Assembly: GCF_004010195.1 (NCBI RefSeq)
Contig: NC_057756.1
Span: 10,653,565 to 10,706,370 of the forward strand
DNA from: Chiloscyllium plagiosum
Taxonomy: Eukaryota
Length of the DNA: 52,806 nucleotides
Direction: 5' to 3'
In this document: one piece after another, positions 4,250 through 48,075 of the stretch
Layout: each line of letters begins with the position of its first letter
Numbering within the stretch: the stretch's first letter is position 1
Position numbers and translations under genes: made by a program
The notes under the pieces: generated by a model
Databases searched by the model: none
Told to the model about the DNA's origin: nothing
What the model saw: the letters and a program-made list of their open reading frames with translations, nothing else

Positions 4250-6620
4250 TATATTTCACAGAGGTTTACTGGGGAAAATATATGGTTTAGAAATTAGAAA
4301 TGAAAAAGGAAAGATCACCTTGATGGGATTGTACTATAGGCCTCCCGATAGTCAGAGAGAGATTGAGAAACAAATATGTTGGGACATCGCAGATATATGT
4401 AAGCAGAATAAGATTGTAATAATGGGGGATTTAAATTTTCCAAACATTGACTGGGACTACAATAGTGTTAAAGGTTTGGATGATGAGAAAATGTGTTCAT
4501 GACAATATGTTGATGATCCTTCGAAAGAAGCAGAGAAACCAGACCTTCTTTCAAGTAATAAGTCAGGGCAGGTGATAGAAGTAAAAGTGAGGGAATGCTA
4601 TGGGTCCAGCGATCATAGTTCTATTAGGATCAAAATGGCTATGGAAAAGTAGAAGCCTTCCATAAAAGTTAAAGTTTTTAATTGGAGTAAGGCACATTTT
4701 AATTGTGAGACAAAAGCTTTCAAAAGGTGATTGGAGTAGACTGTTTATAGATAAAAGTTCGTCCGACGAGTGGGAGACTTTCAGGAGTGCGAGACAAGAG
4801 TTCGGAGGTAAGATGTTCCTGTTAGAGTGAAGGGTAAGGCTGGTCAGATTAATGTATAATGGATAAATAAAGATATGTGGTCCTAGTCAAGAACAAAAGA
4901 GAATCTCATTTTAGATGTGTACGTGTTTGTTCAATTCAATTTCTTAATCAATATAATGAGAGTTGGGAATTCTTAAGAAAGAAATCAGGAAGGCAAAGAG
5001 GGGATATGAGATAGCATTGGCAGATAAGGTTATGCATAATCCAAAGATGTTCTACAAATGCATGAAGTGCAAGAAGTTAAGTGGAAAGGGGGTAGGGATC
5101 CTTAAAGATCGAGGAGGCCATTTTTGTGTTGAACCACAGGAGATGGAAGCGATACTAAATGAATGTTTAACATCAGTGTTTACTGTGGAAAAAGAAATGG
5201 TGGCTAGAGAACACATAAAATTAAATTTTAGTGTTTAAATTACATTTCAGATTACTGAACAGGACGTTCGGAAGATCTCAGAGAATATAAAGGGACATAA
5301 ACCTCCGTGATTTGATCTAATATATCCCAGAACGTGGTGGTATGTAAGGGAGGAAATTACAGGACCCCAAGCAGAAATATTAGGATCAAATATACATACG
5401 GGTGAGGTGCCTGATAACCGTAAGGTGGTTAATGTTGTATTTTTATCTCAGAAAGGTTGTAAGGGGAAATTGGGAATGTATAGGTCTGTGAGAGTGACTT
5501 CGATTGCGTGTAAATATTTAGAGGTTATTTTAAAAGACAGGATTTACGGAAATTTAGGGAGGCAAACATAAATTAGGGATAGTCAGCAGGGATTTTTAAA
5601 AGGAAAATTACATCTCACAATTTTGGTTTTTTTTGAGCTTTTTGAAAAAGTTACCAAAGAAGATTGATGAAGGCAGAGCCGTAGACGTTGCTTCTGTAAA
5701 GCCTTTGAAAAGCTTCTGGATGGTAGACTAAATGAAATAAATTGTCATATGGGATTCATGGCTTAATGGCAGGAGACAGAGAGTGGTTGTGGAAGGTTGT
5801 TTGTTGGACTGGAAGCCAGTGACCAGTGGTTTTCCACAGGGATTTGATCTGGGTAGTGCTTTGTTTGTCATTTATATTAAATTAGATTGCTTACAGTGTG
5901 GAAACAGGCCCTTCGGCCCAACAAGTCAAAACTGACCCGCCGAGCCACAACCCACCCAGACCCATTCCCGTACATTTACCCCTTCACCTAACACTCTGGG
6001 CAATTCACCTAATCTGCACATTTTTGGATTGTGGGAGGAAACTGGAGTACCCGGAGGAAACCCACGCAGACACGGAGAGAATGTGCAAACTCCACACAGT
6101 CAGCCGAGGTGTTAATTGAACCCGGGTCTCTGGCGCTGCGAGGCAGCAGTGCTAACCACTGTGCCACCATGCCGCCCACGATTTGGCTCAGAATACAAAA
6201 GCATGTGGTAATGAGTTTGTGGACAGCATCAAATTTGGTGGCATAGTAGACAGTAAAGAAAGTTTTCTAATATTACAAAGGAATCTTGGTCAAATGGGTC
6301 AATCAGCTGAAAAATAGCAGATGGAGTTCAATCTGGATAAACGTGAGGCATTGTATTCTAGTACAATAAACAAGGTTAGGGCTTATACAATTAATAGTAG
6401 GGACTTGGGTAGTGTTGTATACAACAGAGGGATCCATGGTGCAGCTATATAATTCATTGAAGTTTACATCACACAATTTTGTTTACATCTGGACGTGGTT
6501 TGTTCAGAAGGCATTTAACATGTTTGCCTTCTTTGTTCAGTTCTTTGAGTAAAGGAGTTGAAAAGTCTTTTTTGAGATTGAACAGGAAATTAGTGAGGCC
6601 TCCTCGGGAATATCGTGTCT
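4250..6620 (+). mobile_element. Decayed CR1 LINE ORF2 (APE endonuclease + RT), split by a SINE
   Basis: ORF remnants GLYYRPP...IMGDLNFPNIDW (endonuclease) and KKEIRKAKRGYE...NPKMFY...L.SVFT. RT motifs follow, with many stops and frameshifts. Confidence 0.9.
5881..6177 (-). mobile_element. HE1-like (V-SINE) tRNA-derived SINE
   Basis: The minus strand starts GGGCGGCATGGTGGCACAGTGGTTAGCACTGCTGCC (A box), then GGTTCAATT (B box) and the V-SINE core TGTGTGGAGTTTGCACATTCT...TTTCCTCCCACA, with a CR1-like tail. Confidence 0.9.
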
Positions 6621-7417: not shown

Positions 7418-7530
7418 GCTTCCTGATAAGGGCTCCTGCCCAAAACGTCGGTTTTCCGGCTCCATGGATCCTGCCTGACCTACTGTGTTTTTCCAGCACC
7501 ACTCTAATCTTTACAAACTGAATAAAGTCA
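7418..7530 (+). mobile_element. Penelope-like element 3' end with decayed hammerhead motif
   Basis: CTGATAAGGGCTCCTGCCCAAAACGTCG, then CTGCCTGACCTACTGTGTTTTTCCAGCACCACTCTAATCT. Homologous to 47472-47566 and to the insertion at 14047-14568. Confidence 0.75.
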
Positions 7531-9529: not shown

Positions 9530-9803
9530 GGTGATTCTGTGACTCAGTGGTTAGCATTGCTGCCTCACGGAGCAAAGGTCCTGAATTCAATTCCAATGCT
9601 GGGATACTGTCTGTGTGGAGTTTGCACAGTCTCCCAGTGTCTGCGTAGGTTTTCTCTGTGTGCCCCGGTTTCCTCTCATTGTCTAAAGATATGCAGGTTA
9701 GGTGGATTAGCCACAGTTGAATGTTCAAGAATGTGCAGACGAAGGTCTGTGTGGACTCGATGGACCAAATGACCTCTTTCTTCACTGTAGGGAATCTATG
9801 ATT
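9530..9803 (+). mobile_element. HE1-like (V-SINE) SINE
   Basis: GTGACTCAGTGGTTAGCATTGCTGCCTCA head, V-SINE core and TCTATGATT tail. Confidence 0.85.
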
Positions 9804-9829: not shown

Positions 9830-10446
9830 CCAGGAATTTAGAGCCTAATCAGGGTAACCACTGTGATGGGGAAGTTATCAGAAATAATATGCGTCAAATC
9901 GCACTTTAAGCAATGATAGCAGCAACAAAATATGAAGGGAAGGTTGTGTTTGACAAACGTGAGGAGGAACCCAAAATTGTTGATGCATTTGATTTAATCT
10001 ACATGGGTTTTAGCAAACTTCTGATAAATTCCTTCATTGAATCAACACCCAAAATATGCAAGGCAAAATGACAAAATAGGTGGTGAGGCAGGAAACAGAG
10101 GAAGATGGTCGAAAGATGTTTCTATGACATGAAGTCTGCTTTCAGTGGGATTGTACAGAGCGTGATGCAGAGGCCCTTGCTATTTATGGTAGATTTTCAG
10201 GATTTGGAAATAAGTCAGCTGATATGATCAAGAAGTTTGCATATGAGATAAAAAATGGGCGGACGTTCATGAGTGAGAGGGAGGATGTAAACTGGAAGAG
10301 ATTATGAACAGATTGGTCAGCTCTGCAGTGCAATGGTAAATGGAATTCAACTTGGTAAATAGTGCGAGGGTATATACTTGGGGAAGGCTAACAAGGATGA
10401 CACATGAACAATATGACCATAGAAAGTAGTGAAGGTCAGTTGGTAT
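9830..10446 (+). mobile_element. Old CR1 LINE fragment into which the ERV integrated (resumes at ~18253-18300)
   Basis: RT remnants (YMGFSK, KFAYEIK, WxMEFN). CR1-like sequence continues after the ERV as TTGGGATATACATCCATAGATCCCTG. Confidence 0.7.
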
Positions 10447-11046
10447 TGTAAGAAACAAACTCAAAATTTTAGACGAGACCAACAAATCTGGAAACAAGAC
10501 AATTTATTACGGACTTGCAAGTACGGGCTGCAACTGCACAAAGCAATTGAGCGAATTAGACTCGGGTTAGTTTACAATTATACCTTTGAGCTGAGTGAAG
10601 TCATCTCTCCAGACTCCTAATTGCCCAATCTCTCTTACTAGGCTATACAACTGCCCATCCTCGCTCCACCCTTGTTACTTCCCCTTCCCCATGTTGGCAA
10701 TCTTCCTCCTTGTTAGTGCTGACATTTTCATTATTTTGTCGATAGTACATCAAGATATAATTTAACATTTTGTATCAATACTGCTGGTACATTCCATTCT
10801 CCGTACACTTCATCAATTTTGTATCATTTTTGTACAGCTCAGGCATTTTAGTTATCTCAGTTTTTTTTGCTGAAAACTTATTTTAAAAAAGTTAACTTGA
10901 CGCCAGAATTAGTATTAAATTAACCATAATTAAAAGTAAACATGCGCTTCCCTAAGTACCTGCAGAGTTAATAGTTTTTCTGCTGGAACCCTTTTCTTCA
11001 TGTTTCTATATAGCTGCAAAAACAACATTTCCTTTCATTTCTAACA
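10447..11046 (-). repeat. ERV 3' LTR
   Basis: Direct repeat of 17672-18252. On the minus strand it starts TGTTAG right after the PPT and ends TTACA. AATAAA lies at 10503-10508 (minus). Confidence 0.93.
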
Positions 11047-11068
11047 ACTCCCCCATTTCTTTTATTTT
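11047..11068 (-). promoter_or_regulatory. Polypurine tract (PPT)
   Basis: Minus strand AAAATAAAAGAAATGGGGGAGT immediately precedes the LTR TG. Confidence 0.8.
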
Positions 11069-11137
11069 ACTATTTGTTGTTTTTGCAATTTCTATTCTCT
11101 GTCCTCTTTTCACCCTAAGGTGTAGAGGTTCACAACC

Positions 11138-12453
11138 TTACCGTTCCTGCTTTCTTAAGTCTGCCTCTTTTTCAAACTCTATGAGTAATCTATTACTCTC
11201 TCTTTCTTGTGTGTTTAATGTTGTCATGATCATCATTGATTGTTGACCTCCCAAGGACATTATCGACTTACTCATTACCCACTTTAAGATGTTAAATCCT
11301 ATAATTAGTCCTATTATTATTAGTAAGACATAAATGCCTAAATTAGCGAACCATTTTCCACAACTAGTCAGTTCCCAATCACCCCATTCCCATCTCTAAT
11401 CTTTTCGAAGTTTATTCTCAATTTCTTTTATATTCTTTATCTTTTTCTTTACTATTTCTGCCTTATCTTCTACTAGGGAAATGTCGTCTGCGATGAGGGT
11501 GCAACATTCCTTACCAATAGCTGCACAGGTTCCCCCTTTTTCGGCCAAGAGATAATCTAGAACGATTCGATTTTGTAAAGCTGTTAATCTGTGGCAATCA
11601 TTTCGGTGGTTATGGCCGATATTTGGGTCTGAGTTTCTTCCATTGCATCGGAAGTATTATTAATTAATTTCTCAAGGGCAGCCGCCAGTTTTTGTATCTC
11701 TCCCCCTGCCCTTGCAGTACTGAGGCTTGGGAATAAAGTCCACAACAGACGGTCAGAGACCTCTCGGGTCTTACGTTTTACTCCCTCTTCATTTCTCAGG
11801 TTGTGTTCATGTTTTCTAATCGGAGGTGAGGAATTATATAAGCAAGATAACAGCAGCCACTCCAGCTTTTCTTGTTTTGAGGCAATGACTTATCAATTTC
11901 AAAACATGCATTTCTTCCTATACATTCGGTTATTTGAATGTATTTCTCTCCGGGAATAAATGGATAGGCCTTCCAGCCGCATACCCAATATGTTCCATTC
12001 AATATTTGGGGAACGGTCTTGGCCGTGGCTGGTGGAGACATAAGATGATTTTCCTAATTGGAAGGGTTCAGCATTATTCTGATTACAAAAGCAGGTTGTA
12101 TTCACTGCTCCTTTTGGTGGGGTAATTATAAAGCCATCGATAATACCCTTGGTTCTCAGAGCTGGTCTAGGGAATCATACTGCAAAGTTATATTTACCCT
12201 TTTCATGACTCCACATTGTGTTATTTGTGCCTGAATCAAATTGTTGTACATCATACACTTCCTTTTTGGTAAGTGGTATTACCGAAGTGGGGATTCCAGA
12301 TTCACCATCGTGTGGGATCTCTGCACAGACCCAACAATTAGTATGTCATTTTTGTTCAGCATAATTTTGGCATAGTGTCGTAAAGTGATTTCTCCCGTTT
12401 CCTCGAATAGTTAGTATTACTATTGTTATAATATTATACCAATACCCACCCAT
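11138..12453 (-). pseudogene. env: Retroviral envelope, gamma-type, frameshifted
   Basis: Signal-like MGGYWYNIITIVILTI; CWVC at 12325-12336; furin site RKTR at 11764-11775; immunosuppressive domain LQNRIVLDYLLAEKGG; CX6CC (CAAIGKECC, 11501-11527); TM LGIYVLLIIIGLIIGF; TAA at 11138-11140. Confidence 0.93.
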
Positions 12454-14139
12454 TTCTAACAACTATCTGCCTTCCTCTCTATCTGTCTTATTTCTTTAGG
12501 CGCCAGGAAGAAGTGAATCACACAGCCTTACAATCAATAACAATATATCTGCAAATTTTAAAAGAGTATTTTGTCTCAATTTATTCTTTCTTTCTCAAAT
12601 TAATTTTCAGAGGATTTTCTGTAGAATGGGCGTGCCACTCCGCCCCTGGGGCGTTCACAGGACCTTTGACACGAGTGTGATGGCTCCACACTTTCTCAGC
12701 AGTCCGAACAGCTGTTTCGGTGGTTAGAAGAGTTAGGAACGGTCCCTCCCAACTTGGGTGTAGTTTGGTATCCTTCCAGGTTTTAATCAAGACCCAATCA
12801 CCTGGTCGTATACGGTGTACTGCAAACTCTAGTGGTGGTGTTTGTCCAAATAAGCCTTTGTTCCCAAGAACAGATAATGAAGAACCAAGTGCCATAATAT
12901 AATTTTTCAAAAATTTATCATTAAACTCGGCTGTGGGTACCTCTCCTTCCCCTCCTGGAAATGGTAGTCCAAACATCATTTCATAAGGGGGAAGACCAAT
13001 ATCGCGCATCGGGGCAGTTCGGACGCATAGTACAACAGGCAAACATTTGGTCCACGGCAATCGAGTCTCTATGACTAATTTAGATAATTGTTTTTTTCAA
13101 ATTCTGATTCATGCGTTCCACACGTCTGGAGGAGGTTGGGTGCCAAGGGGTGTGAAATTCCCAAGAGATTTCTAATCCTGCCATTATTCCTTGTAGGATA
13201 CTGGAAGGAAAATGGCTACCTTGATCTGAATCTATATTTTCCACTATTCCATATCTTGGAATAATATGTTCGAGAAGTGTTTTTACCACTCCTTTTGAGG
13301 TGGCTGATGACATTGGGAATGCTTCTACCCACCCTGTTAAATGGTCTACTAAGACCGACAGGTATTTCTGCTTTCCTACTGGGGGTAGTTCAGAGTAGTC
13401 TACTTGTATACTTTGGAAGGGTCTGACCCCTGGTTTCTTCCTCCTTTGGGGATTTCCCTTATTATTTTCTTATTAATCTTCTGCCACGTTGTACATCCTA
13501 TGCATATTTGTTTTGCTAATGTATAGATTCGCTTGCATCCATATTTCCTTAACTCAATGTCACACATAGCTTGGGAGCCCCAATGACTACCTTGGTGTAA
13601 AGTAGCTAGGATGCTTCTCATAACTGGTTTACTCACCAATTCCCTCCCATCTGGCAAGATCCATTTTCCTTCAGTTGTCTTATTGGCCCCTATTTCCTGA
13701 AATTCTTTTTCTTCTTCCTCCGTGTACACGGGGTTCACGGAAGAAGAATCAACTAGGGGCGTTAGTACTTGCTTTCTTTTTACTGTGTGTTTCATAGCTA
13801 CTTCTTTGGCTATTTCGTCTGCTCGCCTGTTTCCCTTTGCTTCTAGTGTGTGTCCATTCTGGTGTCCGGGTACATGGACTCTAGCTATCTCCCAGAGTAA
13901 TTTTAGGCTCACCAATACTTGTCCTATCAATTCTTCATGCGCTAATTCCTTTCCTCTACTATTGAATAGTACCCGTGCTTGCCACATCTTTCCAAAGATA
14001 TGAGCTACCCCGTAACCATACTTAGAGTCAGTGTAAATTGTTCCATGGAGAAAGTGAGGTCTGCAGACGCTGGAGATCAAAGCTGAAACTTTATTGCTGG
14101 AACAGCACAGCAGGTCAGGCAGCATCTAGGGAACAGAAG

Positions 14140-14175
14140 ATTCGACGTTTCGGGTACATGCCCTTCTTCAGGAAT
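14140..14175 (-). ncRNA. Minimal type I hammerhead ribozyme motif (one stem II mismatch)
   Basis: Minus strand ATTC-CTGAAGA-A-GGGC-ATGT-ACCC-GAAA-C-GTC-GAAT. Confidence 0.75.
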
Positions 14176-14482
14176 GAGCAGAGAGTGTTCAGCAGGAGAA
14201 GATAAAAGGTAGGGAGGAGGGACTTGGAGGAGGGGCGTTGGAAATGTGATAGGTGGAAAGAGGTAAAGGTGAGGATGATAGGTCGGAGTAGGATGGAGGC
14301 GGATCCCTCCAGCCTGGCACCGCCTTCCTGACCTGCAGTCTTTTTCTTGACCTCTCCGCCTCCACCCTACTCCGACCTATCACCCTCACCTTGTCCTCTT
14401 TCCACCTATCACATTTCCAACGCCCCTGCTCCAAATCCCTCCTCCCTACCTTTTATCTTCTCCTGCTGAACACTCTCTGCTC

Positions 14483-14518
14483 ATTCCTGAAGAAGGGCAT
14501 GTGCCCGAAACGTCGAAT
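14483..14518 (+). ncRNA. Minimal type I hammerhead ribozyme motif (Penelope-type)
   Basis: ATTC-CTGAAGA-A-GGGC-ATGT-GCCC-GAAA-C-GTC-GAAT: CUGANGA and GAAA cores, stem I ATTC/GAAT, stem II GGGC/GCCC, GUC cleavage triplet. Confidence 0.85.
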
Positions 14519-15464
14519 CTTCTGTTCCCTAGATGCTGCCTGACCTGCTGTGCTGTTCCAGCAATAAAGTAAATTGTTCCATCTCGATTCTGTAAGTATT
14601 TTAAAGCCTGGTTTAATGCGTGCAATTCACAAGACTGTACTGACCATGCGTTAGGTAGCCGGTCAGCATCCAATATTCGGTTCTCATTACCGTCCATTAC
14701 TGCATACCCATTGTATAATTTTCCTTCCACTACTCTTGATGACCCATCTATAAACAATCTGTCTCCTTCATGTAAAGGAATGTCTCTCAGGTCTTGCCTA
14801 ATCTGAGTCTGATAGTCTATAACATCTAAACAGTCATGTTCTAGTTCTCGTTTGTCTAGAGGTTCTCCCTTCCATAAGAAGGTAGCTGGGTTTAAACAGG
14901 TGTCTCTTGCTAATACAAGGTCATCTTTTTCCATCAGAATGGCTTCGTACTTTAAAATTCGCGAATCTGTTAGCCATCTTCCTGCCTTTTGGTTTAACAC
15001 ATTTCTGACTTGATGGGGGTATTAATTACTAGTGCTCCTGCAAAAGTGAGCTTCCGACTTTCTTCTTCCAATACTGGAGTCGCTGCTATTGCCTGTATAC
15101 ATTCAGGCCACCCTCTTGAAACTGGGTGCAAAACTTTAGACAGGAAGGCTATAGGCTGTCTATTTCCTCCTCCTTTCTGAGTAAACACTCCTAAGGCTGC
15201 TCCATCATTTACTGTTCCAAAAAGGCGTAATGGTTTCTCTAGTGAGGGAAGGGCCAAAACTGGAGCTTGTATTAAACTACGCTTTAACTCGTGTAATTTT
15301 TCTTTTTCTTCTTCTGTCCAGTGCAATTTTTCATGTTCGGACACAATCAATTTATAATATAGCCCCTTTGTTTTCTGAGCGTATGACTCTATCCATAATC
15401 TGCAATAGCCCATTAACACTAGAAACTTCTGTAATTCTCGTTTGGTTTCCTGGAGGGGCAACTC

Positions 15465-16642
15465 TAACTTCTTTTATATGTCTGGCCATGATTTGGTTAC
15501 GAACTGGACCTTCAAATGTCCCTGAGCTACTAGATCATTAGGATTTATTCCTGAATATTTTCTCGTGATTTATTTTAGTCTTTGCAAGAAAGCTGACGGG
15601 GCTTCATCTTTGTCTTGTCTTACTTCAAAAGTTTTCGTAAAATTTTGGGATCTAGACGCCGCCTCTCTGATTCCTAAGATAACCATCTCTCGAAAGTCCA
15701 TCATTTCTCCTCTATCATGTTCATCCATACCCTTCCATCATGGGTCTATATTGGGGAATTTGTTTTCAGCTGGTATTGCTCTCTCGCCCACAGGGTGTCT
15801 CTTTTCCCATTCCCTAAGCGCAGCTCTTCTAATCATACCCTTTTCTTCTCCTGAAAATAGTGTTCCCATAACACTCATCAGTTCACCCCATGTATACAAA
15901 TTCGGCCCCAGGAATTGATCCAACTGTTCTGACAATCCTACTGGATCTTCAATCAAACTTTTCATTTCTCTTTTAAAAGACTAACTTCACCACTACTCAG
16001 CGGTGCATTAACATATCCGAATTCGCCATTACCTACGGGTACTTCTCTAAGGGGATATATTTGTGCCGCTGCCCCGCCTATGTCCCCCTCTTCCCTTCTT
16101 TTTACTGCTGATTTTGTTCTAAGCGGACTCAAGGGAAGGTCTTCCCCCGGACCTTTTTTTCGGTTCTTGTACCGGAGGAGGTACTGTGGGAGAGGGAAAT
16201 GACGGGCCATTATTATCATTGTTATATGGGGGAGGGGGAAAACTTGACAAAGGATCCCAGCGGGAATCCTTTGTTTCCTCATTGCCTTCTTCCGTTTTTG
16301 TCTTTTTCAGCATTAATATTTTCGGGCTCCCTGGCCAAAAGGCGGCGTAGTCAGATTCTTTATATGAGCACTTATGTTTCCTATTTGCATATATATTTAA
16401 GTCTTGACATAACCAATCCTCGTCTGACCCATGTTTAGGCCAAAATACTTTTGGGGCTTTAATGCTTTCCTTAGTCCACTCAAAACAACAAAAAATTATC
16501 TTTTTTTGTCTTTTCCTAGCGTCTGAGGATTGTATTTCCAATCTCTTAGCATTTTTCCCAAAGGACTGTCCATTGGGATATAGTCTTCGGATGTCTCTCT
16601 CATGTCTCTTTCTACATCTAAATTGTTATTTTTATTTCTCAT
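15465..16642 (-). pseudogene. gag: Retroviral gag (MA + CA), frameshifted, NC missing
   Basis: MRNK...IPMDSPLGKMLRDWK...CCFEWT...FWPKHGSDEDWLCQ (HERV-I-like MA); WDPLSSFPPPPY late-domain-like motif; YPLREVP...VNAPL; EDPVGLSEQLDQFLGPNLYTWGEL; KSWPDI.KKL. Confidence 0.93.
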
Positions 16643-17649
16643 TTTAATACTCGGCCGATTTCTTTATATAATTTCAATTAACCTCTCTGATGTTCGGCGT
16701 TACCTTCTTCCACACCCACTTTAGGGTCCTAATCTCCGTGAGGGGGTTTCCCTTCTTAATAACTGGTCTAAGGCTGGGTGATCGAATCAGTTAGACACCT
16801 TACTTGTTAAATTAATCTAGCCAATTAAAGACCTTTATTCTCTATTTTTTAAGTTGCCAATTCCCCCGTACTTCTCGTATGGAACCGACCACCAAGGGAA
16901 TACTTAAAGGTCAATTTTCATACCTTGGTCTGTGCACAAATGTTACCTGGTAGAATGCGCGCCCCGTCCCTCGGCAATACCAGACAGCAAAAACCGTTGT
17001 CAATCTAGGTCAGCCAAAATTTACCTTTACCCGGGTCTCATGTACACAAGAGTAACCCAACCAAACCACCACGTCTTAGTGCCCTTCGCACCACAGCGAA
17101 ACAGCATGTAATGCTGCAAATCCCAGCCGTCCGTGCTTGTGGCAACCTGCCGCGTCTTAGTTCACCTTGTCCGTGGCAAAGACTATCAATAAATGTCGCT
17201 ACAAATCTAGATCGGTCTTGTGCACATAAGAGTTACCCGACAAACCACCACCTCTCAGCGCACCTAGAACCACGGCAAAACAACAAGTACTGCTGCAAAT
17301 CCCGGCTGCCAGCGAATGCGGGTCTTAAATCCATAAGAGTTACGCGACCAACCCGCTGTGTCTTAGTGTTCCTCGCTAAGCAAAGACTGACTACAAAACA
17401 AAATCCACTGCCTACCCCGGTCGCCTGGATAATACTTACTTAAGACCTTTTTCTTACCCGGGTCTTGTGCACAACAGTTACCTGACTGAACCCGCCATGT
17501 CGCGTCTGCTCCTCTTGTTTCCAGGGCCCCTCAGTCATGATCTCGCTCGCCCGAGCCATCGCGGCAATGGGTGAAAGTAGAGACCGCCGAAATCGGCGGG
17601 GTGCACCTTCTCTGATTTTTCCGAAATTGCCGAGCAACCGGAGCTTGGG

Positions 17650-17667
17650 ATCCCAGACGAGCCGCCA
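17650..17667 (-). promoter_or_regulatory. Primer-binding site, tRNA-Pro
   Basis: Minus strand TGGCGGCTCGTCTGGGAT matches the MLV-type Pro PBS TGGGGGCTCGTCCGGGAT at 16/18 positions and lies 4 nt from the 5' LTR end. Confidence 0.9.
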
Positions 17668-17671
17668 AATC

Positions 17672-18252
17672 TGCAAGGAACAATTCAATAAAATTTTAGA
17701 CGATACCAACAAATCTGGAAACAAGACAATTTATTACGGACTTGCAAGTACGGCTGCAACTGCACAAAGCAATTGAGTGAATTAGACTTGGGTTAGTTTA
17801 CAATTATACCTTTGAGCTGAGTGAGGTCATCTCTCCAGACTCCTAATTGCCCAATCTCTCTTACTGGGCTTTACAACTGTCCATCCTCGCTCCACCCTTG
17901 TTACTTCCCCTTCCCCATGTTGGCAACCTTCCTCCCTGTTAGTGCTGACATTTTCATTATTTTGTCGATAGTACATCAAGATATAATTTAACATTTTGTA
18001 TCAATACTGCTGGTACATTCCATTCTCCGTACACTTAATCAATTGTGTATCATTTTTGTACAGCTCAGGCATTTTAGTTATCTCAGTTTTTTTGCTGGAA
18101 ACTTATTTTAAAAAAGTTAACTTGACTCCAGAATTAGTATTTAATTAACCATAATTAAAATATACTCGTCCCTAAGTGCCTGCAGTGTTTATAGTTTTTC
18201 TGCTGGACCCCTTTTCTTCATGTTTTTATATATCTGCAAAAACAACACTTCC
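17672..18252 (-). repeat. ERV 5' LTR
   Basis: Roughly 94-95% identical by eye to 10447-11032. Ends TTGCA before the PBS. About 14 nt of its U3 start appear to be missing. Confidence 0.93.
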
Positions 18253-18929
18253 ATAATTTGGGATATACATCCATAGATCCCTGTAGGGAGAGGGCAGGTA
18301 AACCCGTCCATATCACTGTTTTCGTTTCCAATCCCAAAACTTTTCCTATCTCTGTATCCACTACATATCTCCCTCCCTATCCCTTACAGCAACTTCCTCC
18401 CTCCCTATCTCATTCTCCAGCAACGTCGGGTTTGTGAGGGGAGGACGTGAAGTTTCTGACTCAGTTCTAAGTTGTAAACTTCAACCAATTTCTAAATGCC
18501 CACAGAATAAGTGTCTGACCATTAATTTTCCATGCCCCCAAACCCTCAGTCAGTGCAAGAGGAAAATTTTAGATTAACATTTCAAACCTCACCACCTTCT
18601 TCCTGATTACCTCCCTGATAGTATTTTCACAGCGTTGTGTTGTGGAAAGTGAAGCAGTTTTGATCCTCTCTCTGATCACTCTCACTCCCGGACAGATCAG
18701 CCTGAGACACAGTCAGTGCAGTGACCTTGCCATCCCTGGGTTTCCTCGTGCAGCCTCGTGTCTCACACAAAGCCAGGTTACAAACCGATTGTGATGTCAG
18801 GTATTTCCCTGTGTTGTACACGGTGAGGTCACACTGCAACTGTGAGGTCACGCTTTGACCTGTCCAGAACAAGGGGCCAGACTGCGATCAAACAGGGAGA
18901 CACTGAAACCCTCACTGTCATATTCCAGA

Positions 18930-25879: not shown

Positions 25880-27630
25880 GTGGTTGCTGCACTTTGTGAG
25901 GAAGGTTTCTTCTGCCCTGGGAAAAGAGTCCTGTACCGTCTGTGCTCTCCATGCCAATCTTAGAAATTTCTATCAGGTTGTCCTTCAATATCCTGCACTC
26001 GAGTGAAAACAAAAGAAGTCCATCCAAATTTGCTTTTTAGCTAAAATTTCCCCATGTTAGGCAACATCTGGTAAAAAAAAATGTACCCTCTCCAAAGCAT
26101 CCGTAACCTTCTGGTAGCATGATGACCAGAACTGTGTGCAATATTTCAAGCGTGGCCTAACTAAGTTCGATAAAACTGCAACGTAACTTGCCGATCCTTA
26201 TACTTAATATCCCTCCCAATGAAGGCAAGTATGCCATAAGCCTTTTTCTAACTATCTTATCTACCTGCACGACCACCTTCAGTCATCTGTGGATCTGCAC
26301 ATGGAGATCCCTCTGCATATCAATACACCTCAGGGTTCTGCCATTCACTGTATATCTTCCACCTATACTTGACCTTCCAAAATACCTCACATTTTTCCAT
26401 CTGCCATTTTCCTGCCCATGCCTCCAACTGACCTGTATCCTGCTACATCCTCTGACAATCTTCACGATGCGCAATTCCAACAATCTTGATATCGAGTGCA
26501 AATATGCTAATTCGACCAGCTACATTTTCCTCCAAATCATTTGTGACGATCACGAACAACAGAGGTCCCAGTACTGATCCCTGTGAAACACCACTAGCCA
26601 CAACCCTCCATTCCGATAAGCATCCTTCTACCGCTACCTTCTTTCTCCTATGACTAAACCAGTTCTGTTTTGATCTTGCCATCTCACCACTGATTCCATG
26701 TGACCTCACCTTTTGTAACAATCTTCCATTAGGGGCCTTATCGTTTCATCATAAACCTCGAACAGGTTGGTTTAGCATGACCTCCCCCGCAAGAAACCCT
26801 ATTGCTATTTAGTCCGTTTTATTCTAAATGCACATACATCTTGTCCTTGAGAAACTTTTCCAATAATTTCCCTACTACCGATGTGGGGCTCACACGCCTG
26901 TAATTTTCAGGATTGTTTTTCCTATCCTTCTTAAACAATGGGGCAACATTGGCAATGCTCCTATCCTCTGGGGCATTACCTGCAGTAAAAGATGAAACAA
27001 CAATATCTGTCAATGCTCCAGCAACTTTTTCTCTTGCCTCCGTCAATATTCTGGGATATATCCCATCAGGACCCGGGGTCTTTGCTACCTTAGTACGTTT
27101 CAACACCACATCTTTTTAAACAGCAACTTGGCTTTGAAATTTGACACATCCTTCCCTGAGATCATTCTCCATAAATTCTTTCTCTGTGGTGAACAATTAC
27201 GCAATGTATTCAGTTAGGGCCTCACCCACCTCTTCTGGCTCCACCAATAGACTCTCGCTTACATGTATAAAAAGCCATGGGATTCACCTTAATCCTGATT
27301 GCTAATGAATTTTTATGACCGCTATTAGCCCTTCTAATTCCTTGTTTAAGTTCTTTCCTCCTTTTCTTATATACTTCAAGGGCTTCTTTAGTTACCATCA
27401 GCTTAGGCCTAAGGTATGCTTTCCTTACCTTTTAAACAAGGTGAAAATATCCCTTGTCATTTCAAGGTTCATGTAACTTGCCATACGTTCTCTTCATTCT
27501 CACAGGAACGTGCCCCTTCTAAACTCCTACTAACTGAAGTTTGGAATACTCCACATTCCCGATATAGATTTAACCTCAAACAGTCACCTCCAATCAAAAT
27601 TCTCCAGTTCCTACCTAATGTTGCTTTAGT
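25880..27630 (-). mobile_element. CR1 LINE ORF2 fragment
   Basis: KTPGPDGIYPRIL...ANVAPLFKK...NYRRVS.TSVVGKLLE; SGVSQGSVLGPLLF...NDL. Confidence 0.93.
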
Positions 27631-31559: not shown

Positions 31560-32450
31560 TTTGTCTCGTGACGATTGTATTCTTGTCCAGGGGCAAGTGT
31601 GATCTTTCCAATTGCACCACTCGCTACCTTGTTGCCATAGCAGCATCTGATCTATTGGTCATTATTTTTTGAAATCACAGTTGGTTGGTTTGGTTTCCTT
31701 TATTATCCACCATGCTTCTTGGACATTGTTCCTGTTTGTCGTATTACCTTTATCCTGAACTTCATAGCAATTGATTATTCTGTCTGGTTCACTGCTGCTT
31801 TTTCCTTTGATCGATTTGTCGCCATTTGTTTTCATCAGATGAAAACTAAGTATTGCACAGAGAAAACTGCAACAAAAATTCTAGCAACAATCTGCATTTT
31901 GTTTTTGTTAAAAAACATTCCCAACTACTTTCGATATGAACCATTAATGATAATTGACAATGTCCCATGGTATTGTTATAGCAGCTACAGTTATTATAAT
32001 GACCCTCGGTGGGCAAGTGTTAAGTATTTTGAACAATTTTTGACACCAATGTTACCATTCACTGTTATTGTCTTTATTAACATTCTGACTGTCAGACATA
32101 TCTTCGAGGCTATTAAGGTGCGTAAGGGTCTAAGGGGTCAGAGAAAAACAGAGCATGACACAGTGGTAGAGAGCAGAAAGAAATCTGTGACTTTACTCTT
32201 CTCTATTTCAGCCAGCTTCATACTTCTCTGGTCGGTGTATATTTTATATTTCTTTAATGCTGGATATTCCTTGAAGCGTGCTGCTTTCGATCTCTTTATA
32301 CAAGTTGCATATATGCTGCGGAACTTAAGTTGCTGCACAAATGCATTTATTTATGTGCTGACCCAGAAAAAATTCAGAGACCAGTTAAAGTATGCAGTGA
32401 AATATCCAATTATAAAAATACATCATTTGATGAATACATCCAGTAACTGA
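31560..32450 (+). CDS. GPR139-like class A GPCR, coding exon 2, with a +1 T frameshift at 31665-31670 (young pseudogene or assembly error)
   Basis: Polypyrimidine tract + CAG acceptor; LSRGKCDLSNCTTRYLVAIAASDLLV (TM2); FSFDRFVAIC (DRY-like); PMLPF (TM5); ILLWS (TM6); SCCTNAFIY (NPxxY-like); KFR helix 8. About 317 aa if the extra T is removed. AATAAA at 32728-32733. Confidence 0.9.
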
Positions 32451-34900: not shown

Positions 34901-35319
34901 CGATCAGAAGACAGCCCATCAGTGTTGAGCCAATTCACCATCAACGGCACTTACACCTCTATCACATCATCACCACAGTCTACATCATACCCAAACAACA
35001 TCGAAGTCACTTGACCCTCAGGCACCATCTTTGCTGCAGGTCAGATACTCCTCTGCCACAACCTCAGCGCCATCTGTGCCAGGCCAACCAATTCCAGAGT
35101 CACGTCTCTCACCATTGCCCCACCTAATTGATGTTGCCGTCATGTATATCTGTCATTGCTTCACCACCACCAGTGCCAGGCCCAACCAACATCAACGTTG
35201 TTGATTCTCAGGTGCCATCTTTTGCCTACCTCGATGACATTGACCTCATTGATGTGGCAGCCACTGATGACAGGTCCCACACTTGCTCCAATCAGGTAAG
35301 TAGGGGCTCACTTGAGATC

Positions 35320-36160
35320 CACACTGGGTACACTTTCTTCCACACTGTGCCCTGGGGCTCACTCTCAACCGCGCTGACCCACTCTCCTCCCACTGAGTCC
35401 ACTCTTCTCTGCTCTGGGACCATTTTCCTTTGCGGTGAGCCCACTGTCCACCAGGCTGAGTTCACATTCTTTCACGGTGGGCACACTTTTCTTCACACTG
35501 GGCACACTCCTTTCTGTTCTGGGCCCATTCTCCTCCATGTTGAGTCCATTCTCCACTGCAAAGGCACCACTCTCCTCCCAAGCGGGCCCACTCTTTTCCG
35601 CGTTGGTCCCACTCTTCTTTGCAGAGGCCTCACTCTCCTCTGTGCTGGGCCCAGTCTCGTCTGCACTGGGCCCAGTCTCCTCCGCGCTGTGCCAACTCTC
35701 CTTCACGCTGGACCCATTCTCCTCCATAATAAATCCAGTCTGCTTCCCAGTGGGTACACTCTCCTCCCCACTGCGCCCTCTGTCCTCCACGTTGGGCCCA
35801 CTCTCCTCCGTGCTGGGCCGACTGTCCTCCATGTTAAGCCCACTCTACTTCACGGTGAGTCCACTCTGTTCCACGCTGGGCCCAATCCCCTCCACACTGG
35901 GCCTACTGTCCTCCATATTAAGCACACTTTACTTCATGGTGGGTCCACTCTATTCCGTGCTCGGCCCATTCTCTAACATGTTGTGCCCACTCTCCTTCAC
36001 CCTTGGTTCAATCTCCTACACATTAGGCTCACTTTCCTTCACGGTGGATCCACTGTCCTCCACGCTTGGCTTGTCTATGGTCAGCACCCTGGGCCTAGCT
36101 TAGTACAGCTTTAGGTCCATGTCCTGGATCCATTCACGGTCCATGTACTGGGCCCTCACC
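35320..36160. repeat. Degenerate 21-bp tandem repeat (GGGCCCACTCTCCTCCACGCT)n
   Basis: 7-aa periodicity in overlapping ORFs (GPTLLHA on plus; EESGPSA on minus). Confidence 0.9.
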
Positions 36161-46235: not shown

Positions 46236-46560
46236 GTGGCACGGTGGTTCTTTGGTTAGCACTGCTGTCTCACTGCGCACCAGGGTCCCGGGTTCAATTC
46301 CAGACTCTTTCTGGTGCTTGCACATTCTCCTTATGTTTGCTTGGTTTTCCTTCGGGTGCTCTGGTTTCCTCCCACAGTCCAAAGATGTGCAGGTTACGGT
46401 GGGTTGGTCATGCTACATTATTGTTCAGGGATCTGCAGTTTCAGTGCATTAGTCAGGCGGTAAATATTGGGGAGTGGATCTGGGTGGGTTACTCTTTGAA
46501 TGATCAGTGTGAACGTGTTGGGCCAAAGGGCCTGCTTCCACACTATCAGGATTCTAGATC
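46236..46560 (+). mobile_element. HE1-like (V-SINE) SINE
   Basis: GTGGCACGGTGG...GGTTAGCACTGCTG...GGGTTCAATTCC head and TTTCCTCCCACAGTCCAAAGATGTGCAGGTT core. Confidence 0.88.
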
Positions 46561-47089: not shown

Positions 47090-48075
47090 CCCCATCATCT
47101 ACAGTGACCGTTACCCCCGGGACACCCAGATCGACTCTTACTTCATTCCCAACAGCCCTCGCTCCACCCACTGCGTCCCAGCACCTCTCCCTACAAGAGC
47201 TGAAGGTGTAACACCTGCCCATTTCCCTTCTACCTCCCCAGTATCTAAAGGCTCAACCATTATTTTCTCAGGTGAAGCAGCGATTTACCTGCCCTTCCCA
47301 CAATCTAATCCAAAGCATTCACTTGTCACAATGTGCTATTGTCTACACTGGGTAAATGAAGGATAGACTGGGTGACTGCTTCACAGAACATCAACGTTCA
47401 GCCTCCAAAAAGACCCTGAGCTTCCAGTTGCCTTCGACTTTTACTCTCCACCTTTCAGGCTTTCTGCCTGTATTCCTGATGAAGGGCTTTTGCCCGAAAC
47501 GTCGATTTTACTGCTCCTCGGATGCTTCCTGAACTGCTGTGCTTTTCCAGCACCACTCTAATCTAGCCCATTCCAGTTTAAAACCCTACCCATTTCCCTG
47601 GCCAACATCTCTGTCTCAGGCATGCTGCAGTTTTCCAGTGAAGTTCAGCACAAACTGGAACAACAACATCTCATTTTCCATTTGGGGACCCTGCAGCCCT
47701 CCGGATTCAATATAGAGTTCAATAATTTTAGGGTCTGAACTCTCCCCTGTGCGATTCCCCACCCCTCACACTATGCCTTGGTATCACTTAGACTGCTATT
47801 ACATACTACCTATTGTTAGCCACTAGCAGTCTCCATTTACAGGTATTCAGCCTCCCAGCCAGATCATTATCCATTCCTTTATCCAACTGTTCTTCTCTCT
47901 CTTTGGGCTCTATTCCCATCTATCGTTTACGCCTTACCCCCTCCCCACTACCCTATCCCCTGCATTTAAAATGACATTTTCTCAGTTACCACCAGTTCTA
48001 AGGAAGGGTCATCCGCCCTGAAATGTTGACTCTGATTTATTTTCAAAGACGCTGTCAGATTTGCTGATCTTTTCA
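47090..48075 (+). mobile_element. Decayed Penelope-like element 3' part (GIY-YIG remnant) with a nested younger PLE end at ~47455-47566
   Basis: TGTCACAATGTGCTATTGTCTACACTGGGTAAA...AGACTGGGTGACTGCTTCACAGAACATC reads as C..C...YxG...RLGD.F.EH; KLEQQHLIFHLGTLQPSGFNIEF. Confidence 0.8.
47472..47507 (+). ncRNA. Minimal hammerhead ribozyme motif
   Basis: ATTC-CTGATGA-A-GGGC-TTTT-GCCC-GAAA-C-GTC-GATT. Catalytic cores are intact but stem I is weak. Confidence 0.75.

Follow-up and report, generated by a model that had tools for sequence, protein, structure and literature searches.

A decayed class I provirus in Chiloscyllium plagiosum with HERV-IP/ADP-like gag-pol and a shark-type envelope

Introduction

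A retrovirus-like element lies within the stretch of Chiloscyllium plagiosum DNA analysed here (the window; 52,806 nucleotides of contig NC_057756.1), and it raises the question of which retroviral lineage it belongs to and whether gag, pol and env point to the same relatives. An earlier note, made from the sequence alone, had described it as a structurally near-complete HERV-I/IP-like provirus with env. In our best explanation, it is very probably a class I (gamma-like) shark retrovirus that integrated into the germ line and is now dead, with gag-pol related to HERV-IP, HERV-ADP and ChiRV1 and an env of a fish/shark lineage.

Results

Anatomy of the element

The features of the element and its left flank, with the evidence for each, are as follows.

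10447 to about 18259, minus strand: provirus
9850..10446, plus strand: left flank, a decayed CR1-like RT remnant (tblastx match to an RT-like remnant at 26530-26667)
10447..11046, minus strand: 3' LTR, 600 bp, with TG...CA ends and an 8/9 terminal inverted repeat (LTR alignment; ends read from the sequence)
11048..11063, minus strand: polypurine tract (PPT), one base before the TG that starts the 3' LTR (read from the sequence)
11138..12453, minus strand: env remnant (Pfam TLV_coat, E 2e-8; motifs; shark Env relatives at 50-54%)
12581..14046, minus strand: 3' part of pol, C-terminal half of RNase H plus integrase (Pfam RNase_H, rve, MLVIN_C)
14047..14568, no strand given: palindromic Penelope-like repeat insertion (target duplication, arms, hammerhead-like cores)
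14583..15467, minus strand: middle of pol, RT thumb/connection, tether and N-terminal half of RNase H (Pfam RT_RNaseH_2, E 2e-12)
15462..15473, minus strand: in-frame deletion junction from capsid end to RT thumb (tblastn jumps and junction sequence)
15474..16642, minus strand: gag remnant with matrix, proline-rich linker and capsid (Pfam Gag_p30, E 2e-19; tblastn)
16643..17649, minus strand: leader, about 1 kb long (a 33-nt unit present in four degenerate copies, plus longer partial repeats)
17650..17667, minus strand: tRNA-Pro-type primer binding site (PBS), 4 nt inside the 5' LTR (by-eye comparison with the table of Vargiu 2016)
17672..18259, minus strand: 5' LTR that has lost about 6-14 nt at its outer end, with a polyA signal near the inner end

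The element thus retains the class I provirus order LTR-PBS-gag-pol-env-PPT-LTR on an A-rich sense strand (33.9% A), with every gene broken by frameshifts or stops and decay spread evenly across all genes. The earlier description was right about the LTRs, the PBS, the PPT and the gag, pol and env remnants, the latter now matched in Pfam for gag, RNase H, integrase and the Env transmembrane subunit (TM); near-completeness does not stand, with about 1.5 kb deleted. Across the window, ARAGORN found no tRNA genes and Rfam gave no matches at gathering score.

The LTR pair aligns over 553 matching positions, with 25 mismatches and 8 gaps (p 4.3%, K2P 0.045), a lower divergence than the roughly 5-6% previously estimated by eye. 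At 7e-10 per generation, this would put the insertion about 32 million generations ago; with the two per-year rates of Han 2015 (PMC4422223), its age would be roughly 10-100 My. A by-eye comparison of the 18-mer PBS with rows 40, 203 and 205 of the table in Vargiu 2016, supplement 6, gave one mismatch to two Pro rows and two to the top-scoring Pro row; priming would have been by tRNA-Pro, in line with the tRNA-Pro PBS of the note. No tandem array was found in the leader. The 3' LTR reaches 11046, and because some 6-14 bases are missing from the outer end of the 5' LTR, the provirus has no clean target duplication. The best candidate for one, a 5-mer with one mismatch that requires an eroded LTR end, was not accepted.

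Gag and Pol resemble HERV-IP/ADP

The gag remnant carries at least three frameshifts and at least three stops, and its translation, with X at the stops, matches Gag_p30 (PF02093) at the E-value given above. The matrix motif quoted in the note is present, spread over two frames. In by-eye counts on short stretches of the Vargiu 2016 consensus proteins (cut at about 400 letters), the matrix is identical to HERVIP at 37 of 63 positions, and the N-terminal half of the capsid is identical to HERVADP at 42/63, compared with 10/52 for HERVW. Over 52 residues of the RT thumb, the corresponding counts are 31 for HERVIP, 19 for HEPSI1, 16 for HERVI-10250 and about 16 for HERVW. The closest Gag carrying an organism name comes from Chiloscyllium plagiosum itself, which, together with the mostly shark Env relatives, gives good support to the shark host proposed in the note.

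The middle of pol has one frameshift, near 15018, and shows 65-69% identity to relatives P0003 and P0004, while the 3' part has two and shows 56-65% to P0004 (tblastn). Among solved structures, the thumb/connection is nearest to MLV RT (E 4e-31, compared with E 4e-5 for foamy virus), with 61 of 149 residues identical against 68% for the nearest relatives. The integrase combines an rve core with an MLV-type C-terminal domain (PF18697, E 1e-10), and a GPF motif lies in the 12581-13096 frame.

In a tree of 111 rows, the element falls within a 28-row clade (SH-aLRT 99) that includes catshark, skate, snake, lizard, bird and bat rows, and a 31-row tree supports the same grouping at 98/100. Both trees rest on 150 columns, without HERV, MLV or walleye-virus rows, and do not fix the position of the element inside the 28-row clade. 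A single clade of the chondrichthyan rows is rejected (AU p 0.029). Swan rows are the group in which the shark capsid falls, with 66% identity, and of the 15 listed members of a skate cluster, 6 have open Pol frames of 882 aa.

A different lineage, epsilon-like or another class I group with only superficial likeness to HERV-IP, has several points in its favour: the ERVs described from elephant shark are of epsilon- or snakehead-like types (PMC4422223), Xu 2018 restricts the gamma clade to amniotes, the Env of the element is fish-type, and our trees contain no true epsilon reference. Against these points, the RT thumb scores 19/52 with HEPSI1 and 31/52 with HERVIP, matrix and capsid agree with HERVIP/ADP motif for motif, and the AU test rejects a grouping with the one teleost row taken as putative epsilon (p 0.011). 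We therefore regard this alternative as largely refuted already and very improbable. On the proteins compared, the HERV-IP/ADP-like assignment of gag and pol holds. The label HERV-I is itself ambiguous, as the HERVI (10250) of Vargiu does not match, while HERVIP and HERVADP do. The HERV-I/IP-like label of the note is accordingly retained for gag and pol in its IP/ADP sense, and dropped for HERVI (10250) and for env, which is not of the IP/ADP type.

Env belongs to another lineage

The env remnant, broken by several frameshifts and stops, shows a signal-peptide-like start, a CxxC in the surface subunit (SU), a basic cleavage-like site, an immunosuppressive domain of the LQNR type, CX6CC and a membrane stretch; it thus has the features of a gamma-type Env (immunosuppressive domain and CX6CC in TM, CxxC in SU). 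The immunosuppressive domain of HERVIP/ADP Env is of the WENR type (Vargiu 2016, PMC4724089). Ten Env relatives were matched, and of the seven with an organism name, six are sharks and one is a hagfish. Judged by motifs and protein matches, this Env is placed outside the HERV-IP type, its best relatives being shark Envs of a lineage annotated as PABL-like. With an LQNR-type Env and shark relatives, the element is therefore IP/ADP-related in gag-pol and not a member of the supergroup, and, with the same high probability as our overall explanation, the virus was a mosaic of gag-pol and env when set beside the human and chicken members.

An in-frame deletion removes nucleocapsid, protease and the RT core

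At the junction, the capsid end is joined in frame to the RT thumb, and the missing 1.5 kb or so corresponds to nucleocapsid (NC), protease (PR) and RT fingers/palm. The tblastn match of relative P0013 jumps there from residue 236 to 707, nothing in the window matches residues 1-369 of the full-length Pol P0004, and the last 125 or so Gag residues of P0039 are also absent from the element. Relatives P0039-P0042 carry PF00098, and the corresponding NC region is deleted in this copy. The three minus-strand frames contain no YxDD motif, no DTG/DSG of a protease and no zinc knuckle. A splice scar was considered as the origin and rejected, as no donor or acceptor consensus is found at the junction.

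The deletion may have arisen through template switching during reverse transcription or through later recombination. The copy would have had no protease or RT of its own and, had the deletion come before integration, would have been copied by the enzymes of a helper copy. It would afterwards have undergone neutral decay and received a Penelope-like piece in RNase H. A stronger version, in which NC-PR-RT was lost once in frame and the product spread with a helper's enzymes as a non-autonomous subfamily, is consistent with the in-frame junction, the retention of both LTRs, PBS, PPT, integrase and env, and the multi-copy nature of the family. We nevertheless consider it unlikely: none of the 104 relative proteins has the same junction (tblastn matches that cross it are run-through alignments of undeleted Gag/Pol or gene-model joins elsewhere), no junction-bridging piece occurs among the contig pieces listed, and one third of random deletions keep the frame.

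The palindromic insert and the host repeat

The insert (522 bp) is a palindrome of two arms of about 215 nt that differ at 7 of 214 positions, flanked by a 14-bp target duplication (14033-14046 and 14569-14582) within RNase H, and its depth is very high in three DNA runs. Each arm holds a minimal hammerhead-like core in which helix II appears paired by eye. The hammerhead pattern has five matches in the window, three of which are 14487 (plus), 14171 (minus) and 47476 (plus); no Rfam hammerhead match was obtained. In a relaxed Rfam search of the insert, all 33 matches fell below gathering score, the top ones being hairpin-shaped miRNA models, and were set aside as palindrome artefacts. No RT or GIY-YIG endonuclease reading frame lies inside the insert. 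Before the sister copy at 47476 stands a putative GIY-YIG-like remnant, so named from its motif, with no Pfam or NCBIfam match. From its hammerhead core (PMC4209133) and by eye, the insert looks like a piece of the pLTR of a Penelope-like element (PLE). It resembles the pLTRs of Cervera and De la Pena 2014 (PMC4209133) in its minimal hammerhead, short helix I and palindromic helix III position, and differs from them in consisting solely of two inverted, non-coding ends, without Rfam or Pfam support.

Could the palindrome, or the deletion, be an assembly artefact of a repeat-rich region? The share of the stretch's words is at most 0.18 in any sequencing run listed, no contig piece listed spans the element, and a 500-N gap lies elsewhere in the window. 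The target duplication and the differing arms of the insert, the 25 substitutions between the LTRs and the decay spread over all genes nevertheless make an artefact hardly credible.

The proposed nesting order of CR1, then ERV, then PLE is confirmed for its last step by the 14-bp duplication in pol, and its CR1-first step is weakly supported. The left flank matches the RT-like remnant at E 2e-4, with no Pfam match in any of its three frames, and alignment scores for CR1 continuity across the provirus were reached by 165/300 and 198/300 shuffles. A possible CR1 continuation of about 40 bp lies at 18260-18300. A single CR1 split by the provirus is plausible but weakly supported.

Occurrence of the family

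Family sequence covers the whole element in sequencing runs of three organisms. Among the runs listed, no RNA run contained the stretch, with shares of at most 0.18. None of five candidate viral contigs held a relative, and 133 candidate metagenome contigs gave two weak loci, neither matched by the four test proteins.

Discussion

Among the known systems closest to the element is the HERVIPADP supergroup (HERV-IP/HERVIP10 and HERV-ADP) together with chicken ChiRV1 (PMC4724089), with about 59-67% by-eye likeness in matrix, capsid and RT thumb. Markers of HERVIP are a Pro or Ile PBS, GPY/F at the integrase end and A above 31%, and the supergroup has one zinc finger in NC, no dUTPase or G-patch at the protease, and LTRs of the LTR10 or LTR71 type (Vargiu 2016, PMC4724089). 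The element has in common with it the Pro-type PBS, the GPY/F-type integrase end and the A-rich sense strand, and differs in its LQNR-type Env with shark relatives, its shark host and its missing NC/PR/RT core.

A retroviral fragment from lemon shark is reportedly labelled HERV-I and is said to be a short pol piece spanning protease to RT; it covers the region deleted in the element, so the two cannot be compared directly. As summarised by Han 2015 (PMC4422223), this fragment (Martin et al. 1997; Herniou et al. 1998) is human-ERV-related. The CmiERVs of elephant shark are complete or nearly complete proviruses with LTR divergence of 0.024-0.033 (Han 2015, PMC4422223) and, unlike the IP/ADP-related element, are epsilon- and snakehead-related.

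According to the available text of the preprint by Chen et al. 2021 (bioRxiv 10.1101/2021.11.23.469661), ERV-GA.a-Cpu and ERV-GA.a-Ara are gamma-related ERVs with gamma-type Env, their full-length genomes were obtained by extension and sorted into lineages, Chiloscyllium has 46 orthologous groups, and pol/env incongruence is widespread. We infer that the suffixes denote Chiloscyllium punctatum and Amblyraja radiata. These lineages are like the element in combining gamma-related pol with gamma-type Env in cartilaginous fish. The statement that full cartilaginous-fish proviruses are sparsely described must therefore be tempered, since full-length gamma-related enveloped ERVs, Chiloscyllium and Amblyraja lineages included, already appear in that text, and the novelty of the element is correspondingly lower. 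The same text draws no link to HERV-IP/ADP and does not mention "HERV". No explicit shark HERV-I/IP provirus was found in the literature searched, most subscription papers lying outside its scope, and the explicit IP/ADP identity and the direction of transfer may be unpublished.

As a locus, the element is one decayed copy and reveals no new mechanism. On a single molecule it carries LTR, PBS and gag together with a shark-type env, and it links the old lemon-shark fragment and the gamma-related shark lineages of 2021 to the HERV-IP/ADP clade. We tentatively suggest, as a possibility rather than a probability, that several HERV-IP/ADP branches, each possibly with a fish-type envelope, were acquired independently by sharks and skates through repeated jumps between amniotes and elasmobranchs enabled by env exchange. 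If true, this multiple-branch reading would contradict the view that the gamma clade is amniote-only (Xu 2018). The element bears on the frequency of retroviral jumps between sharks and land vertebrates, and on whether env swaps accompanied them.

Structure and age of the provirus

The element is a genuine, doubly damaged provirus of class I (gamma-like) type, whose limits were set by local alignment of its ends together with reading of the sequence:

10447 to ~18259, minus strand: provirus
11048-11063, minus strand: purine tract, read from the sequence, one base before the TG of the 3' LTR
14047-14568: Penelope-like insert in the provirus RNase H, flanked by a 14-bp duplication

In a local alignment of the LTR pair (10447-11032 and 17672-18252), 553 positions match and 25 differ (13 transitions and 12 transversions), with 8 gaps, for a divergence of 4.3% (p; K2P 0.045), lower than the 5-6% judged by eye in the earlier note. 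Read directly from the sequence, the 3' LTR reaches 11046; it starts with TG, ends with CA and has a terminal inverted repeat of 8/9. The 5' LTR match stops at about 18259, and because its outermost 6-14 bases are missing, no clean target duplication was found at the LTR ends, the best candidate being a 5-mer with one mismatch. At 17650-17667 an 18-mer resembles a primer binding site (PBS), being one base off two Pro-assigned rows and two off the top-scoring Pro row in the available part of the PBS table of Vargiu et al. 2016 (PMC4724089, supplement 6). A mutation rate of 7e-10 per generation (PMC10587355, as far as available) dates the LTRs to 0.045/(2 x 7e-10), or about 32 million generations, and the per-year rates of 2.2e-10 and 2.2e-9 quoted in the part of Han 2015 (PMC4422223) available to us give about 100 My and about 10 My, so that, with gene conversion and rate error, the age is a range only.

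Coding remnants and internal deletion

Every gene of the provirus is broken: gag by at least three frameshifts and at least three stops, pol by three frameshifts, insert apart, and env by several frameshifts and stops. Among 13 stop-free segments scanned, the Pfam families above cutoff were RT_RNaseH_2, RNase_H, rve, MLVIN_C and TLV_coat, and the capsid, translated with X at stops, matched Gag_p30 (E 2e-19).

The earlier note called the provirus structurally near-complete, overlooking the absence of about 490 codons, some 1.5 kb, that comprise nucleocapsid, protease and the RT fingers and palm. This absence follows from the limits of three relatives: P0004, a 1163-aa Pol, aligns from residue 370 onward only; the match of P0013, a Gag-Pol model, skips from residue 236 to 707 at 15462-15467; and the match of P0039, a 546-aa Gag, to the capsid segment ends at residue 417. 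It follows also from the lack of YxDD, protease and zinc-knuckle motifs in the minus-strand frames. At the junction the capsid continues in frame into the RT thumb. A splice origin was rejected, as the junction has no splice consensus; template switch or recombination may have made the deletion.

Affinity of gag-pol and env

In the RT-connection search, 38 proteins matched among 1229 candidates, with identities of 68-69% at most (catshark 60-63%, skate 61%, bat 58%, snake 57%, birds 50-57%). The capsid search (31 matched among 527) returned a Chiloscyllium plagiosum relative with 74% identity across 72 residues, as well as swan proteins, forming one cluster, at 64-66%. MLV RT agreed with the element at 61/149 positions. 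We also set the window translation against the consensus proteins of supplement 3 of Vargiu et al., each to about 400 letters, counting identities by eye. Of 52 RT thumb residues, 31 were identical to HERVIP, 19 to HEPSI1, 16 to HERVI (10250) and about 16 to HERVW; the matrix agreed with HERVIP at 37/63, and the N-terminal half of the capsid with HERVADP at 42/63 and with HERVW at 10/52. These counts, manual and over short stretches, support affinity to the HERVIPADP (IP/ADP) supergroup without amounting to a formal phylogeny. HERVIP markers in the available parts of PMC4724089 are a Pro/Ile PBS, one zinc finger, GPY/F and a WENR-type ISD (supplement 2), with 31-33% A (supplement 5); the element shares the Pro PBS, GPF and a high A content (33.9%, vs 24.0% T), whereas its ISD is LQNR-type.

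The TM search matched 10 proteins among 303 candidates. Six of the seven with an organism name are from sharks (sawshark, sevengill, white shark and catshark; 50-54%) and one from hagfish; P0109, a white shark relative, aligns from SU into TM (E 9e-26). The HERV-I/IP-like reading of the whole provirus holds for gag-pol, which is IP/ADP-related in RT thumb, matrix and capsid, and, given these shark relatives and the LQNR-type ISD, not for env, which is not of the supergroup's type.

A profile-free search of cluster representatives found 3820 proteins, of which 150 were listed. For the trees, 110 of 163 candidates, those with long enough alignments, were kept, plus the window. The window belongs to a clade of 28 rows that has a long stem (SH-aLRT 99) and includes rows from catshark, skate, snake, bird and bat. 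Among 20 rows looked up, a lizard and a swallow proved to be further members of this clade, and those from cat, mole-rat, anole, gecko, garter snake, turtle, caecilian, stork and minnow do not belong to it. A 31-row tree gave the clade support of 98/100, and AU tests, on groups picked after earlier trees, rejected a grouping of the window with that of the minnow (p 0.011) as well as one of all chondrichthyan rows (p 0.029); these results come from the simpler model, the trees use only 150 columns, and none of them contains a named HERV, MLV or epsilon sequence. In the little skate cluster of the relative P0007, 6/15 members among the matches listed are open Pol frames of 882 aa, and such frames occur on four or more separate large contigs; the lineage therefore has much younger branches, and the skate Pol branch belongs to the same clade, grouping apart from shark rows.

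Penelope-like insert and nesting order

The insert is palindromic, with 216-nt arms that are 97% identical (differences at 7/214 positions), and sister copies of it lie at 7420, 33875 and 47472. Each arm holds a minimal hammerhead-like core, the type reported for Penelope-like elements, fish ones included, in the part of PMC4209133 available. Rfam did not confirm this core in the insert. At 47200-47560 (+), the sister copy comes after a decayed frame that resembles a Penelope GIY-YIG endonuclease; neither Pfam nor NCBIfam matched this frame. Since the 14-bp duplication flanks the insert inside RNase H, the insert is younger than the provirus, as the proposed order of CR1, ERV and Penelope-like element had it. 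The first step of that order is plausible but weakly supported: the left flank looks like the remnant of a CR1-type RT (tblastx E 2e-4), but it has no Pfam match, and CR1 continuity from left into right flank was not above shuffles.

Related copies in sequencing runs

Small shares of the window, at most 0.18, are held by 20 of the 24 sequencing runs among the matches listed. Four of these runs were compared with the element at 85% likeness. Each of the three DNA runs (coded organisms A, B and C) covers 30/30 element bins, mostly at 90-95% likeness, and copies related to every part of the element therefore exist in three organisms; read depth over the element is not copy number. In the RNA run (about 2% read), depth is 5-10 reads across the 3' LTR and the end of env, and zero across 14656-17565. 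Its reads are almost all oriented alike, which would fit proviral-sense polyadenylated RNA, and they come from other copies, since they differ from the element at several positions. Within the proviral leader, 16930-17495 holds a 33-nt unit in four degenerate copies, along with partial repeats of 58-81 nt; contigs of run X1 jump about 190 nt in this part, which suggests that repeat copy number varies within the family.

Other features of the window

A 269-aa open frame at 31641-32447 (+) has a rhodopsin-family GPCR match (7tm_1, E 5e-15) and resembles GPR139/142-like receptors, a group that has expanded in sharks. An array rich in GC, made of units of about 21 nt with 26 copies in register, occupies 35128-36100 (+); two of its frames stay open for 240-280 aa, and it has no Pfam match. 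A 26-bp tandem satellite (GC 72%) takes up positions 1-1470, and the 500-N gap of the window comes after it. At 9530-9800, 5993-6173 and 46238-46396 lie three SINE-like copies, tRNA-derived and related to one another, which we assume to be HE1-type SINEs of elasmobranchs.

Relation to published lineages

A lemon shark retroviral sequence was reportedly labelled HERV-I in the original papers. Within the portions of the sources available, Han 2015 (PMC4422223) describes complete elephant-shark proviruses and cites a human-ERV-related lemon shark sequence; Xu 2018 (PMC6001957) and a 2022 review (PMC8922424) confine the gamma clade to amniotes; and Chen et al. (bioRxiv 10.1101/2021.11.23.469661) report gamma-type Env ERVs in six cartilaginous fish, name ERV-GA.a-Cpu and ERV-GA.a-Ara as gamma-related lineages, count 46 orthologous groups for Chiloscyllium and describe pol/env incongruence as widespread. 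The supplementary sequences of Chen et al. may include the very family of this element. The available parts of PMC11089739, PMC4977317, PMC12287698, PMC4133949 and PMC10435555 contain nothing specific to it, and no shark provirus named HERV-IP/ADP-like was found in the literature, subscription journals lying mostly outside the search. The lineage is already known from sharks in outline, and the part worth pursuing is the wider question of possible repeated land-sea jumps within the IP/ADP clade.
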